Shown here: in pieces, positions 46,640 to 50,508 of the stretch | How the letters are laid out: the number at the start of each line of letters is the position of its first letter | How positions within the stretch are numbered: position 1 is the stretch's first letter | Notes under the pieces: generated by a model | What the model saw: only the letters and a program-made list of their open reading frames with translations | The model's database searches: none | Told to the model about the DNA's origin: nothing | Assembly (NCBI RefSeq): GCF_057098645.1 | Contig: NZ_CM169472.1 | DNA: 64,000 nt | Direction: 5' to 3' (one strand) | Made by a program: the position numbers and the translations under genes

Positions 46640-47388
46640 AGCGCCAGTGCCAACGTTTTATCATCATCGGTACGCTCGTTTACCGCCGGGCTCGACAAAA
46701 ACTGCTTTAACAATTCAGGTAATAAATCGAGTTGTTCCTGCGTTGCTGCCGCCAGTCCATTGAAAAACGGGGTAAAGAAAGGCACATGCGGAGAATTATC
46801 CAGCATATTTAACGCCAGTCGCTGAATACCATCCGTAAATGCTGCAACTTTATGCGCACGCTCAGTGCTGGTGAAAGTTTCCAGTCTGGAAACAGCATCT
46901 TCATCGCTAATGAAATGCGTCATATTGGCATATTCACCCACCATCGGCGTGAGCAGCAGTTCCAGACCACGACCAAAATCCACCACTACACCGCCGTCGC
47001 CAATTTGCATAATCAATGTGCCGTTAGCCGATGAAATCAATCCCAGAAACGTGCAGGCAAAATCGCGAACTGCTAATGCTTTGGCTTCTGCCTCGGCAAA
47101 AAGTCGTTGACGAATGGTCAGTACCATATTTGTGGCGAGGACATCATTAAGCCCCAATTCACCGTCCTGTACTTTTTGCACCATAAACGCCATCGCTTCA
47201 TTGACGGCGAGCTTCGCGCCTTCTCCTCCCTGCGAAACGCTACCTGCGCCATCAGCAAGGAACATCACCAGTAATGGCTGCTGGTCATTTAGCCAGGCAA
47301 CCTGCATCTGGCAGGCATCCTGACAAGGTAAATCAGCGCTAATGTGCGACGTTCCAACAGCGGATGCATAAACCAGACGCCAGCTCAC
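46627..47388 (-). CDS. pphC: PP2C-like Ser/Thr phosphatase PphC (YegK)
   Basis: 253 aa; conserved position between yegL and yegI with overlapping start/stop codons. Confidence 0.82.
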
Positions 47389-48044
47389 ACTGACGTCCAG
47401 CCTTTTGGCGCTTCCAGCACAACTTCCGTTCCCGGCGTGGAGCGGGAAACCGAACGCAGTGAACTGGATAACCAGCTAAACAGTTCGCGGAATTGTAATC
47501 CCTGCAGAGACAAAGGCTGACGGACGCTGATTTGGGCCAGCGTCTTCATATCCGCCCCCTGAACACCGATGGAAAAGAAGGCAAACTTCTTATCTTCTTC
47601 CCCCTGAAACACTTTGTTGGCGGCAGCCTGCCACTCATCGGTTGGAGCGCCATCGGTGATCAGGAAAATCCACGGGCGATAATACGAAATACCATTTGCA
47701 CGATACTCACGTTTCCGCTCCTCTACCATATCCAGGGCTTTGGTAATGGCGGCACCCATTGGTGTATCGCCCTGGGCAAACAGAATGGGCGGGAAAAAAT
47801 TAGCGGCGCTGGTAAAGGGTTGTTCCACATGCACCGGGCCGAACGTCACAATACCAAGTTCCACTCTTTTTAAGGCCAGCGGGTCGGCAAGCAGCTCATC
47901 GCGAAAGGTAACCAATCCGGCGTTAAGTTCATTAATGGGTCTACCGTTCATCGAACCAGAAACATCCAGCAGCAAAATGCAGGGGCAACGTGGTTCCGGG
48001 TTACTGGCAAAATCGCTGGTGGCAAACGTGATTTGTTCGCTCAT
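47385..48044 (-). CDS. yegL: von Willebrand factor A (TerY-like) domain protein YegL
   Basis: 219 aa; MIDAS motif DVSGSM near the N-terminus. Confidence 0.85.
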
Positions 48045-48225
48045 AAGAAATCCTTTCTTAGAGAATTATTGAGGTCCGGTATCATACCGATTGCAATAAT
48101 GAAATAAGAGCAAACGAAGAAACTTTCAGAATTAGGCCCGGCGGCGCAGAAAATTTTGCTATTCGCCTCGCAAGAACGGAGAGCCGTCGATTGACACTAA
48201 GGGCGGAGTGACATAATTACAGGAG

Positions 48226-48376
48226 TGAGGGTTAGGGAGAAGTTTCCCCCTCCCCCTGGTGTTCTTAGTAAGCCTGGAAGCTAATCACTAAGAGTATCAC
48301 CAGTATGATGACGTGCTTCATCATAACCCTTTCCTTATTTAAAAGCCCTCTTCTCCGGGAGAGGGTTCCCCGTTTT
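48226..48376 (+). ncRNA. sibA: Sib antisense sRNA, copy 1 (sibA-like antitoxin RNA); ends approximate
   Basis: Sigma70-like promoter (TTGACA 48191-48196, 17-bp spacer, TAATTA 48214-48219); fully antisense to ibsA; hairpin 48346-48365 followed by a T-rich run. Confidence 0.7.
48265..48324 (-). CDS. ibsA: Type I toxin peptide IbsA (19 aa, MMKHVIILVILLVISFQAY)
   Basis: Translated directly from the minus strand; matches my recollection of K-12 IbsA (from memory, not searched); too short to appear in the ORF track. Confidence 0.85.
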   Translation of the reverse strand: MMKHVIILVILLVISFQAY

Positions 48377-48561
48377 AGCGTCCCGCTGAAATCGTCGGCT
48401 TACCTCCTTTCGCCCTGAATGCAGTCTATCGCTGACTTGCGGATAAAATAGTTTCAAGTGTGATTATTGCGTAACGACTCGCAAAGAATATTTGCTGGCA
48501 GGATCGCAGACTGCAAAGCCTGCAGATTGACAATCTTATCGTGAAGGCATACTTTCAGGAG

Positions 48562-48705
48562 TGAGGGTAGAGCGGGGTTTCCCCCGCCCTGGTAGTCTTA
48601 GTAAGCGGGGAAGCTTATGACTAAGAGCACCACGATGATGAGTAGCTTCATCATGACCCTTTCCTTATTTAAGGCCCCTTCCTCGGGAGGGGCTTTCCCG
48701 TTTCA
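48562..48705 (+). ncRNA. sibB: Sib antisense sRNA, copy 2 (sibB-like); ends approximate
   Basis: Promoter TTGACA 48527-48532 / TACTTT 48550-48555; antisense to ibsB; terminator hairpin about 48674-48693 then T-rich run. Confidence 0.7.
48598..48654 (-). CDS. ibsB: Type I toxin peptide IbsB (18 aa, MMKLLIIVVLLVISFPAY)
   Basis: Translated directly from the minus strand; matches my recollection of K-12 IbsB (from memory, not searched). Confidence 0.85.
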   Translation of the reverse strand: MMKLLIIVVLLVISFPAY

Positions 48706-48889
48706 GCGTCCCGCTGAAATCTTCGGCTTACCTCCTTTCGCCCTGTATGCAGTCTATCGCTGACTTGCGGATAAAATAGTTTCAAGTGTGATTATTGCGT
48801 AACGACTCGCAAAGAATATTTGCTGGCAGGATCGCAGACTGCAAAGCCTGCAGATTGACAATCTTATCGTGAAGGCATACTTTCAGGAG

Positions 48890-49033
48890 TGAGGGTAGAG
48901 CGGGGTTTCCCCCGCCCTGGTAGTCTTAGTATGCTGGGTAGCTAATCACTAAGAGCACCACGATGATGAGTATCTTCATCATGACCCTTTCCTTATTTAT
49001 GGCCCCTTCCTCGGGAGGGGCTTTCCCGTTTCA
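48890..49033 (+). ncRNA. Sib antisense sRNA, copy 3 (third tandem module); ends approximate
   Basis: Promoter TTGACA 48855-48860 / TACTTT 48878-48883, identical to copy 2; terminator hairpin about 49003-49022. Confidence 0.65.
48926..48982 (-). CDS. Ibs-family type I toxin peptide, third copy (18 aa, MMKILIIVVLLVISYPAY)
   Basis: Translated directly; differs from the copy-2 peptide at positions 4 and 15 (L to I, F to Y). Confidence 0.75.
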   Translation of the reverse strand: MMKILIIVVLLVISYPAY

Positions 49034-49189
49034 GCGTCCCGCTGAAATCGTCGGCTTACCTCCTTTCGCCATGCAAGCAGTCTATCGCTAACGCGTAGAT
49101 AAAATAGTTTCCTGTGTTATTACTGGATGCGTGCTCGCAAATGTGCCCGCCATTCAGACGATTCCCGATAGTGTTTCATAATTCCTCCA

Positions 49190-49207
49190 TTTTTCTCCCT
49201 TATTGGC
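49190..49207 (+). promoter_or_regulatory. BaeR box upstream of mdtA
   Basis: tttttctcccttattggc matches 17 of 18 positions of the BaeR consensus TTTTTCTCCATDATTGGC as I remember it; about 55 bp upstream of the mdtA ATG. Confidence 0.7.
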
Positions 49208-49260
49208 TGGCTACACTAGTATCATTCCGCGAAACGTTTCAGGAAGAGAAACTCTTAACG

Positions 49261-50508
49261 ATGAAAGGCAGTTATAAATCCCGTTGGGTAATCGTAATCG
49301 TGGTGGTTATCGCCGCCATCGCCGCATTCTGGTTCTGGCAAGGCCGCAATGACTCCCAGAGTGCAGCCCCAGGGGCGACGAAACAAGCGCAGCAATCGCC
49401 AGCGGGTGGTCGCCGTGGTATGCGTTCCGGCCCATTAGCCCCGGTTCAGGCGGCGACCGCCGTAGAACAGGCAGTTCCGCGTTACCTCACCGGGCTTGGC
49501 ACCATTACCGCTGCTAACACCGTTACGGTGCGCAGCCGCGTAGATGGTCAGTTGATGGCGTTACATTTCCAGGAAGGCCAGCAGGTCAAAGCAGGCGATT
49601 TACTGGCAGAAATTGACCCCAGCCAGTTCAAAGTTGCATTAGCACAAGCCCAGGGCCAACTGGCAAAAGATAAAGCCACGCTTGCCAACGCCCGCCGTGA
49701 CCTGGCGCGTTATCAACAACTGGTAAAAACCAATCTCGTATCTCGTCAGGAACTGGATGCCCAACAAGCGCTGGTCAGTGAAACCGAAGGCACCATTAAG
49801 GCTGATGAAGCAAGCGTCGCCAGCGCACAGCTGCAACTCGACTGGAGCCGCATCACCGCACCAGTCGATGGTCGCGTTGGTCTCAAGCAGGTTGATGTTG
49901 GTAACCAAATCTCCAGTGGTGATACCACCGGAATTGTGGTGATCACCCAGACGCATCCTATCGATTTGCTCTTTACCCTGCCGGAAAGCGATATCGCTAC
50001 CGTTGTGCAGGCGCAAAAAGCCGGAAAACCGCTGGTGGTAGAAGCCTGGGATCGCACCAACTCGAAGAAATTAAGTGAAGGCACGCTGTTAAGTCTCGAT
50101 AACCAAATCGATGCCACTACCGGTACGATTAAAGTGAAAGCACGCTTTAATAATCAGGATGATGCGCTGTTTCCCAATCAGTTTGTTAACGCGCGCATGT
50201 TAGTCGACACCGAACAAAACGCCGTAGTGATCCCAACAGCCGCCCTGCAAATGGGCAATGAAGGCCATTTTGTCTGGGTGCTGAATAGCGAAAACAAGGT
50301 CAGCAAACATCTGGTGACGCCGGGCATTCAGGACAGTCAGAAAGTGGTGATCCGCGCAGGTATTTCTGCGGGCGATCGCGTGGTGACAGACGGCATTGAT
50401 CGCCTGACCGAAGGGGCGAAAGTGGAAGTGGTGGAAGCCCAGAGCGCCACCACTCCGGAAGAGAAAGCCACCAGCCGCGAATACGCGAAAAAAGGAGCAC
50501 GCTCCTGA
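49261..50508 (+). CDS. mdtA: Multidrug efflux RND membrane-fusion protein MdtA
   Basis: 415 aa from ATG 49261 ([16 protein letters not shown]...); the track ORF is an in-frame upstream extension. Confidence 0.95.

Follow-up and report, generated by a model that had tools for sequence, protein, structure and literature searches.

Ibs toxins and their Sib antisense RNAs have been characterised since 2008, and K-12 MG1655 carries two of these modules, sibA/ibsA and sibB/ibsB, between yegL and mdtA. In the E. coli DNA analysed here (a stretch of 64,000 nt, hereafter the window), the same gap holds three intact Ibs toxin/Sib antisense-RNA modules, arranged in tandem and head to tail. This raises the question of what the third module is, where it came from and how far the array as assembled can be trusted. 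A first-pass annotation had correctly given K-12 only the pair at this locus, and had taken the third module for a recent duplication followed by divergence, which the comparisons presented below do not bear out. We consider it very probable that the window contains three intact members of the Ibs/Sib family, forming one allele of a yegL–mdtA array whose copy number is polymorphic (one to four modules) across E. coli.

Three Ibs/Sib modules in tandem

The three tandem modules proposed from the sequence are confirmed, since the plus strand contains three full-length matches to the Rfam model RF00113 (SIB_RNA), each accompanied by an ibs ORF on the minus strand (Table 1). These matches have E values of about 1e-30, the gathering score of the model being 56, and all three modules thus belong to the Sib family by covariance-model score. 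The direct repeats, previously put at about 330 bp, correspond to units of 336, 328 and 328 bp, in three-copy repeat families spaced 328–336 bp apart, and chance is excluded as the origin of three repeats with both SIB_RNA matches and ibs ORFs. Unit 2 can be aligned with unit 3 over 300 nt (48343–48642 versus 48671–48970) at 95% identity, and the two share a perfect repeat of 185 nt (48419–48603 is the same as 48747–48931), while the last ~60 nt of unit 3 diverge, giving way to the unique sequence that precedes mdtA. Between the start codons of yegL and mdtA there are 1,216 bp when the array has three modules, and about 1,544 bp when it has four.

Table 1. Features of the yegL–mdtA interval (positions in the window)
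Feature	Position	Strand	Basis
yegL (vWA-domain protein), left flank	47385–48044	-	ORF; yegL annotated at same place in K-12 and STE15
Repeat unit 1, sibA/ibsA module plus spacer, 336 bp	48160–48495		Three-unit alignment, repeat families
SibA promoter	48191–48219	+	-35 TTGACA 48191–48196, 17-nt spacer, -10 TAATTA 48214–48219
SibA antitoxin sRNA	48227–48371	+	Ends transferred from K-12 sibA (2153311–2153454); Rfam match 48191–48339, 144.9 bits; terminator hairpin about 48344–48367
ibsA, 19 aa, MMKHVIILVILLVISFQAY	48265–48324	-	Identical to K-12 IbsA, WP_010723109.1
Repeat unit 2, sibB/ibsB module plus spacer, 328 bp	48496–48823		Repeats, alignment
SibB promoter	48527–48555	+	-35 TTGACA 48527–48532, 17-nt spacer, -10 TACTTT 48550–48555
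SibB antitoxin sRNA	48563–48698	+	K-12 sibB annotation transferred; Rfam match 48527–48669, 142.0 bits; terminator hairpin about 48672–48695
ibsB, 18 aa, MMKLLIIVVLLVISFPAY	48598–48654	-	Identical to K-12 IbsB, WP_001386899.1
Repeat unit 3, 328 bp	48824–49151		Repeats, alignment
Third Sib promoter	48855–48883	+	TTGACA 48855–48860, 17 nt, TACTTT 48878–48883
Third Sib sRNA (B' type)	48891–49026	+	Rfam match 48855–48997, 140.8 bits; terminator hairpin about 49001–49021
Third ibs gene, 18 aa, MMKILIIVVLLVISYPAY	48926–48982	-	Identical to RefSeq WP_012767742.1
mdtA, right flank	49261–50508	+	ORF, comparison with STE15 and K-12

All three ibs ORFs have the layout of Ibs toxins, i.e. 18–19 hydrophobic residues with an MMK/R start and an aromatic Y end, encoded wholly inside the Sib gene of the opposite strand, with AAGGAAAGGG (Shine-Dalgarno) just upstream of ATGATG. 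Their translations match exactly the minus-strand peptides given in the first-pass annotation, which had rightly described them as invisible to the ORF track, since ORFs of less than 20 aa are missing from that list, and each of them is identical to a curated Ibs protein (Table 1).

Promoters and terminators of the Sib RNAs

Each module has its own promoter and intrinsic terminator for a Sib RNA of ~140 nt. Plus-strand units of this kind, with sigma70-like promoters and terminators and overlapping the peptide genes, had been proposed before, and the sequence, the K-12 alignment and the predicted folds agree with that description. The promoters have a perfect TTGACA, a spacing of 17 nt and either TAATTA or TACTTT, and are located 7 nt before the starts annotated for K-12 sibA and sibB (in the K-12 alignment, the sibB start is 7 nt downstream of the SibB promoter). 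The third Sib promoter is that of unit 2 base for base, and alignment upholds the earlier remark that copies 2 and 3 have essentially identical promoter-proximal sequence and differ in their peptide. The folds predicted for the three RNAs are alike (-54.2 kcal/mol, z = -4.8 for SibA; -62.5, z = -4.3 for SibB; -58.1, z = -3.7 for the third Sib), with visible GC-rich terminator hairpins. A generic sigma-70 promoter and terminator scan flagged none of the Sib promoters, Sib terminators or ibs promoters (on the minus strand it gave no hit at all), and it misses the Sib elements because their -10 boxes fit the consensus at only 3/6 positions and the T-run is interrupted; such a scan is uninformative for the Ibs/Sib family. 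No ibs promoter was located, and inspection by eye of the minus-strand sequence preceding ibs gave no convincing sigma-70 promoter either.

At 48219, where the SibA -10 box ends, a T-to-A substitution gives TAATTA, in contrast to TAATTT in K-12 and every other genome examined (STE15, O145). The A is absent from all complete genomes searched, where the best match is 99.3%. Gene conversion from another Sib copy was considered as its source and rejected, because the A occurs in 0/37 loci examined and not in K-12 sibC, whose promoter is laid out like that of SibA (TTGACA-17-TAATTT, 7 nt to +1). A change at this position of the -10 box may weaken SibA.

The third peptide and the age of its module

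The third peptide differs from IbsB by L4I and F15Y, and in this respect the claim that it is a variant Ibs peptide holds. It is not new, however, since it already exists as WP_012767742.1, a protein annotated by PGAP as 'Ibs family toxin' in O157:H7, BL21(DE3) (two copies), O145:H28 and others; the same peptide is also found in PT62 and in two-module strains, and can be translated from annotated CDSs of 2009C-3133, ET490 and PT62. More generally, Ibs peptides are mosaics, with residues 4–5 (LL, WI or IL) and residue 15 (F, Y or W) occurring in different combinations. Other Escherichia species also have the IL and Y variants, and the variation at these residues is therefore old. Judged by its sequence, the third module is a widespread 'IL...Y' allele rather than a new gene.

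The idea that a recent duplication of sibB/ibsB, specific to this strain, gave rise to the third module, which would be starting to diverge into a new Ibs variant, draws on the two modules of K-12 and on the perfect 185-nt stretch, promoter included, shared by units 2 and 3. However, the body of the third module (B' hereafter) is 100% identical to modules of unrelated strains. Its 176-nt core is found at 100% identity in seven complete genomes, and identity of this extent over 176 nt excludes unrelated descent, so that these cores must be of common descent. Together with the distribution of the peptide just described, with the presence of at least three modules in about half of the records sampled (see below) and with closest relatives examined that carry four modules rather than two, this leaves a recent duplication with next to no credibility. 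If anything, the window appears to have lost one module, because RM12761 and Z1323HEC0399, with essentially identical flanks, carry four.

It is also very unlikely that the third module has lost its function and is decaying, persisting just as repeat DNA. Nothing specific points in that direction, although a Citrobacter sedlakii copy that has lost its stop codon shows that degeneration does occur in some genomes. By contrast, the ORF, Shine-Dalgarno, Sib promoter and terminator of the third module are all intact, its Rfam score is as high as those of SibA and SibB, four of the six ORF substitutions relative to ibsB are synonymous, the other two being conservative (L to I, F to Y), and the B' allele is conserved across many lineages.

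A mosaic of a four-module array

On the two sides of the array, flanks of 18 kb and 14.8 kb are essentially identical (reported 100.0%) to those of O145:H28 genomes, in which the array itself has four or two modules. In O145:H28 RM12761, an additional module X (MMKWIIIVVLLVISFPAY; TRD1 AGCCGGGAAGC, codons AAGTGGATC) is found between B and B', which is thus in fourth place, whereas the window has no X. With the exception of the SNP at 48219, all k-mers up to k=55 from window positions 48001–49300 are present in the RM12761 array; misses start at k=61 and k=71, which places two junctions in shared segments about 60 and 70 nt long. In terms of k-mer content, the window array is a mosaic made up of pieces of the four-module array. 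The spacer-2-to-promoter-1 junction and the whole B-to-B' junction are both absent from 5,426 complete genomes (best matches 98.6% and 98.7%, respectively), while seven complete genomes contain a 100% match to the second junction, which links promoter type 1 to the B' body. Loss of module X from the O145 four-module array by simple deletion was rejected as an origin, the promoter before B' being type 1 and not type 2 or type 3. For the same reason, one crossover cannot yield the window array.

On these comparisons, the arrangement would have arisen either through a rearrangement private to this genome or through a collapse during short-read assembly. In the latter case, the true array would have four modules (A, B, X, B'), from which a shortcut taken by the assembler through the shared repeats would have dropped module X, putting the SibB promoter before B'. 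This would account for the four modules of the O145:H28 relatives with essentially identical flanks, for the k-mer content, for the junctions missing from complete genomes and for an arrangement that a single unequal crossover could not produce. However, a mosaic of this kind also results from real recombination, complete assemblies of O145 relatives truly vary between 2, 3 and 4 modules (four and two in those with compared flanks, three in RM8988-C1), the promoter type 1–B' body junction is known from complete genomes and the contig is continuous across the repeat over 64 kb. We regard a collapse as rather unlikely, though far from negligible. That the window contains a genuine private O145:H28-like allele, produced by a two-step rearrangement together with the T-to-A change in the SibA -10 box, or more broadly that the locus is a recombining cassette array, is a reading which we put forward tentatively. 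A private allele would imply that two-step rearrangement placed a second copy of the SibB promoter before B', and a cassette system would imply that TRD1 and the variable peptide sites (residues 4–5 and 15) are reshuffled among units. In either event, this is a fast-changing tandem array (2 to 4 modules within O145), for which copy numbers from short-read assemblies should be distrusted.

A model for toxin control and array remodelling

The mechanism of Sib/ibs control, with its TRD1 and TRD2 elements, has been worked out previously (Han et al., 2010, PMC2943612; reviewed in PMC4147584). Transposed to the window, the minus strand would encode the hydrophobic Ibs peptides, over-production of which would depolarise the inner membrane and arrest growth, while transcription of the plus strand from a promoter of the type TTGACA, 17 nt, TAATTT or TACTTT would produce a Sib RNA of about 136–145 nt. 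This RNA would show perfect complementarity to the entire ORF of ibs as well as to its ribosome-binding site, as follows in silico from the antisense layout. The first contacts between Sib and ibs mRNA would be made by TRD1, inside the ORF, and by TRD2, over the Shine-Dalgarno and start codon, and pairing would block translation and lead to cleavage by RNase III. The 328-bp units would recombine with one another through unequal crossing-over and gene conversion, and the array would be remodelled in this way.

Where modules 2 and 3 differ bears on this scheme. The third Sib differs from SibB at +42, +45, +49, +54 and +57 (TRD1), +83 and +110 (edge of TRD2). Units 2 and 3 are near-identical over 247 nt, and of the eight differences there, five are clustered in 16 nt (P = 0.002), all of them in the region corresponding to SibC TRD1; four of these five are synonymous. 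On the cassette reading, this synonymous excess in TRD1 would point to selection on RNA–RNA specificity rather than on the peptide. The TRD1 duplexes are predicted at -41 to -43 kcal/mol for cognate pairs versus -21 to -30 for non-cognate pairs, i.e. TRD1 pairing is predicted to favour the cognate partner by 12–21 kcal/mol, whereas TRD2, in which modules 2 and 3 are one base apart, hardly discriminates between the Sib2/Sib3 pairs (about -31 kcal/mol for cognate versus -28). On these energies, TRD1 pairing should be cognate-specific between modules 2 and 3, and cross-repression via the nearly identical TRD2 is probably still allowed. These mostly synonymous differences concentrated in TRD1 fit the published idea that recognition elements keep paralogous Sib RNAs apart, and they represent natural variants with which that separation could be tested.

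Comparison with known Ibs/Sib systems

SibC/ibsC, the experimentally dissected member of the family, is at another locus (fau–serA) and encodes another peptide than the window modules, although the architecture of its RNA is the same and its TRD1 and TRD2 can be aligned with theirs. The IbsC peptide is MMRLVIILIVLLLISFSAY. Its toxicity and sequence tolerance have been described, and other K-12 Ibs peptides are toxic to different degrees (PMC8309996); the literature searched contained no published toxicity test for the IL...Y peptide. Variation among the K-12 paralogues is concentrated in TRD1, as it is between the window modules, and seven bases of SibC TRD2 (C107–C113) had to be changed to retarget SibC to ibsD (Han et al., 2010, PMC2943612). 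A single TRD2 base distinguishes module 2 from module 3, which would make cross-talk likelier in the window.

Among 60 records taken at even intervals from the 5,422 matching E. coli records, the locus has at least three modules in 31/60, two in 25/60, one in 3/60 and none in 1/60. On this sample, about half of sequenced E. coli would have three or more modules, and a third copy would be ordinary. Since loci with at least three modules are about as frequent as two-module loci, K-12 is a misleading reference here. Multi-copy arrays outside K-12 had been reported by 2010, with seven ibs genes in O157:H7 Sakai versus five in K-12 (Fozo et al., 2010, PMC2887945).

Among the closest known counterparts are sibA/ibsA (b4436/b4667) and sibB/ibsB (b4437/b4668) of K-12 MG1655, which have the same locus and flanks. 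K-12 IbsA and IbsB are peptides 1 and 2 of the window, Sib promoters, starts and terminators align base for base apart from the SibA -10 box, and the single B module of K-12 ends in the sequence that follows the last module of the window (TTTATGGCCCC); the difference is two modules versus three. Three- and four-module arrays are known in O157:H7, BL21(DE3) and O145:H28, whose peptides bear the RefSeq annotation 'type I toxin-antitoxin system Ibs family toxin' (WP_012767741.1, WP_012767742.1). The observation made in the window is thus real but already known in kind, down to a third peptide that PGAP annotates. The order A, B, ..., B' is common to the window and known three- and four-module arrays, O157:H7 having A, X, B' and BL21(DE3) having A, B, B', B', but in the window, unlike in these arrays, B' stands behind the promoter variant that normally precedes B.

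Organization of the array

The window carries three tandem sib/ibs modules, each consisting of a hydrophobic toxin gene, ibs, and a Sib antitoxin sRNA that overlaps it entirely on the opposite strand. All three are full-length matches to Rfam family RF00113 (E ~1e-30, gathering score 56), each match containing a minus-strand ORF that starts with ATGATG and has AAGGAAAGGG upstream (three of three units). Over 300 nt, unit 2 agrees with unit 3 at 95% of positions, and the two share a perfect 185-nt repeat (48419-48603 = 48747-48931). Such an array cannot be due to chance. The first-pass annotation, which had described three tandem repeats of about 330 bp, each Sib with its own promoter, and gave two modules for K-12, was right on all these points, K-12 being annotated with two modules between yegL and mdtA. 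Its three peptides match ours exactly and, at 18-19 aa, drop out of an ORF listing with a 20-aa floor.

Features of the sib/ibs array and its flanks (window coordinates)
Feature	Coordinates	Strand	Remarks
yegL	47385-48044	-	left flank of array
Repeat unit 1	48160-48495		336 bp, head-to-tail between yegL and mdtA
RF00113 (SIB_RNA), unit 1	48191-48339	+	full-length, 144.9 bits
ibs ORF, unit 1	48265-48324	-	MMKHVIILVILLVISFQAY
Repeat unit 2	48496-48823		328 bp, head-to-tail with units 1 and 3
RF00113 (SIB_RNA), unit 2	48527-48669	+	full-length, 142.0 bits
ibs ORF, unit 2	48598-48654	-	MMKLLIIVVLLVISFPAY
Repeat unit 3	48824-49151		328 bp, head-to-tail, mdtA side
RF00113 (SIB_RNA), unit 3	48855-48997	+	full-length, 140.8 bits
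ibs ORF, unit 3	48926-48982	-	MMKILIIVVLLVISYPAY
mdtA	49261-50508	+	right flank of array

Sib ends were placed by aligning the window to K-12 MG1655, in which sibA, ibsA, sibB and ibsB are annotated. By this alignment, SibA and SibB begin at 48227 and 48563; homology puts the third start at 48891, and the 3′ ends lie near 48371, 48698 and 49026. In every Sib promoter, a perfect TTGACA is followed after 17 nt by a weak -10 hexamer (TAATTA in unit 1, TACTTT in units 2 and 3) that lies 7 nt upstream of +1. One common fold is predicted for the three RNAs (-54 to -62 kcal/mol, z = -3.7 to -4.8 versus shuffles). It has a closing stem and a small GC hairpin, then a long hairpin with TRD1 (one of the two elements by which Sib recognizes ibs mRNA) at its apex, an AUGAUGA/UCAUCAU hairpin, a CCUUAUUUA tract left unpaired and a GC-rich terminator. 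A generic consensus scan flagged neither the Sib promoters nor the terminators of the window, and located no ibs promoter on the minus strand of the array. The ~130 nt downstream of each Sib terminator, i.e. upstream of ibs on the minus strand, are 81-94% conserved among the three units. The SibA terminator hairpin (48346-48365) also has a terminator-like score on the minus strand (CCCTCTCCCGGAGAAGAGGG then CTTTTAAATA), where it falls inside the putative ibsA 5′ leader and may act by attenuating ibsA transcription or by structuring the leader.

Distribution and age of the modules

The third module had been read as a recent, diverged duplication encoding a variant peptide. The observation and its classification stand but the claimed novelty does not, since the peptide is WP_012767742.1 (MMKILIIVVLLVISYPAY), annotated in RefSeq; the supposed variant is a known, widespread allele. 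Seven complete genomes match the 176-nt core of the window's module 3 at 100% identity, and 186 records do so at 99% or more. When the whole interval was compared by megablast with 5,426 complete E. coli genomes, 5,419 gave a match, and modules were counted, from record span and annotated CDSs, in 60 records evenly spaced down the ranking. Three or more are present in 31/60, two in 25/60, one in 3/60 and none in 1/60; among the 31, two clearly have four, while five aligned only to the third module and possibly have more. The K-12 two-module state is one allele among several.

Module composition in individual genomes (A, sibA/ibsA; B, sibB/ibsB; X, extra module; B′, third module of the window; L-numbers, fetched comparison loci)
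Genome	Locus	Modules	Order
BL21(DE3)		4	A, B, B′, B′
PT62		4	A, B, X, B′
O145:H28 RM12761	L009	4	A, B, X, B′
Z1323HEC0399	L010	4	A, B, X, B′
O157:H7 Wll001		3	A, X, B′
STE15		3	A, B, WI...Y hybrid
O145 RM8988-C1	L011	3	A, B, X
2009C-3133		2	A, B′
ET490		2	A, B′
O145:H28 RM13514	L012	2	A, IL...F hybrid

The X peptide is MMKWIIIVVLLVISFPAY (WP_012767741.1), and all of these peptides, B′ included, carry the PGAP label ‘type I toxin-antitoxin system Ibs family toxin’. The RM13514 hybrid is MMKILIIVVLLVISFPAY (WP_100792650.1), and a 1-nt deletion in a Sib promoter of this strain leaves a 16-nt spacer. Seven ibs genes were reported in O157:H7 Sakai against five in K-12, together with lineage-specific ibs duplications (Fozo et al. 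2010, PMC2887945). The three-module state, the third peptide and the tandem polymorphism were thus all in RefSeq and the literature beforehand. In K-12 (L001), the A-B spacer is the variant that follows the last module (CTAACGCGTGAAT...TTTCCTCTG; K-12/window alignment columns 385-409 and 597-924) and the single B module has a B-type TRD1 and peptide with B′-type downstream sequence (TTTATGGCCCC), so that the K-12 array itself looks like a recombinant or deletion product.

Modules directly upstream of mdtA occur well outside E. coli (e.g. L028, 1768-2238; L020, 8694-9117), as found by pattern-scanning one genome per species (L013-L037) and verifying loci with Rfam, blastn and ORF extraction. 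There is one in Citrobacter species and in Salmonella enterica subsp. diarizonae, two in Pseudocitrobacter, and one or two in other Escherichia species, where Escherichia sp. E1V33 encodes MMKILIIVVLLVISWPAY and MMKLLIIVVLLVISYPAY, MOD1-EC7003 MMKILIIVVLLVISFPAY and E. whittamii MMKWIIIVVLLVISFPAY. Throughout, variation falls at the same two sites: residues 4-5 are LL, WI or IL and residue 15 is F, Y or W, in most of the possible combinations. Peptide variation is an old polymorphism that recombination has reshuffled, and recent divergence of a new duplicate is rejected; the identical core in seven genomes also speaks against it. Tryptophan at residue 15 (ISWPAY) is found in E. coli E69 and Escherichia sp. 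E1V33. In Citrobacter sedlakii NBRC 105722 (L024, ~4851, minus strand), the ibs ORF runs past the usual stop (MMKSVIILVRFLVMSFQAYSDTRGRGDPPL) and has an arginine within the hydrophobic core; this copy is possibly degenerating.

Origin of the three-module array

The sequences flanking the array are essentially identical to those of O145:H28 genomes over 18 kb on the left and 14.8 kb on the right (reported as 100.0%); of these genomes, four modules are present in RM12761 and Z1323HEC0399 and two in RM13514. With O145 RM8988-C1, which has three and lay outside the flank comparison, these counts indicate that copy number shifts within a clonal lineage. The window differs from RM12761 in two ways only, a T-to-A change at 48219 and one missing 328-bp unit accompanied by a promoter switch: the promoter-proximal 60 nt before B′ are of the variant that normally precedes B (CTGCAGATTGACAATCTTATC) instead of CTGCGGATTGACATTCTGAAC. 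This combination rules out a single unequal crossover; deriving the window array from a four-module one needs two exchanges, or a deletion and a short gene conversion.

The array might instead have been short-cut from four modules to three during assembly, with loss of X, which we consider rather unlikely. Apart from the 48219 SNP, all its k-mers up to k=55 are present in the four-module array; the first misses come at k=61, for a junction within 48746-48805, and at k=71, for one within 48863-48936. A de Bruijn assembler run at k=55 or below that short-cut a four-module array would give this pattern, as would real homologous exchange. None of the 5,426 complete genomes contains the first junction or the whole B-to-B′ junction (best matches 98.6% and 98.7%), whereas the second junction, joining the type-1 promoter (the variant usually preceding B) to the B′ body, occurs at 100% identity in seven. 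Whether or not collapse occurred, the third module is real, known sequence, and doubt is limited to whether X has dropped out. Only two features are specific to the window, the exact A, B, B′ mosaic (possibly artefactual), in which the SibB promoter is duplicated, and the 48219 change.

The latter turns the SibA -10 from TAATTT into TAATTA, losing the hexamer's final T, which is among the most conserved positions of sigma-70 promoters. If real, it is predicted to lower SibA transcription. None of the 5,426 complete E. coli genomes has the A (best match 99.3%), nor does any of the 37 fetched loci, and it could stem from faulty sequencing or consensus calling within repetitive sequence. The change may otherwise be tolerated because cells without SibA remain viable, ibsA being recognized by other Sib RNAs (Han et al. 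citing Fozo 2008, PMC2943612).

Antisense specificity and comparison with known Sib/Ibs pairs

Anatomy, family membership and the pattern of differences were read from the window; for the mechanism we infer from the literature. By analogy with SibC, the experimentally dissected member, Sib RNAs would pair with ibs mRNAs starting either at TRD1, which in SibC spans +46 to +68 within the ORF, or at TRD2, which covers the translation initiation region at +99 to +115, and one of the two would be enough for repression; both coincide with the stretches that vary most across the family and determine cognate specificity (Han et al. 2010, PMC2943612). The duplex would then stop ribosome binding and be processed by RNase III (PMC4147584). 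Excess Ibs peptide would depolarize the membrane, as reported for IbsC, in which central hydrophobic and C-terminal residues are required but changes at the N-terminus are tolerated (PMC8309996); IbsA of Salmonella is reported to bind the a and b subunits of Fo and to reduce ATP (2025 preprint, bioRxiv 10.1101/2025.05.26.656083).

With the SibC elements mapped on the window, the RNAs of units 2 and 3 (Sib 2 and Sib 3) differ in TRD1 at +42, +45, +49, +54 and +57, and outside it at +83 (hairpin loop, codon 4) and +110 (edge of TRD2). Five of eight differences thus lie within 16 nt (48604-48619 versus 48932-48947) of 247 near-identical nt (P = 0.002, permutation), with only three in the remaining ~230 nt. 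On the coding strand, four of the five clustered changes are synonymous and one is F15Y, while that at +83 is L4I, a pattern which suggests that antisense specificity, and not the peptide, has been under selection. Predicted TRD1 duplexes in all three modules reach -41 to -43 kcal/mol for cognate but -21 to -30 kcal/mol for non-cognate pairs, so TRD1 would be cognate-specific. At TRD2, the Sib 2/Sib 3 values are about -31 kcal/mol for cognate and about -28 kcal/mol for non-cognate pairs; the two RNAs probably repress each other's targets through this element, and modules 2 and 3 would therefore be only partly insulated. The third peptide is probably toxic because L4I and F15Y are conservative and the family tolerates much substitution. 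By sequence, the modules appear to have every feature testable in silico that defines the Ibs/Sib family, and their promoters are laid out like that of K-12 sibC (TTGACA-17-TAATTT).
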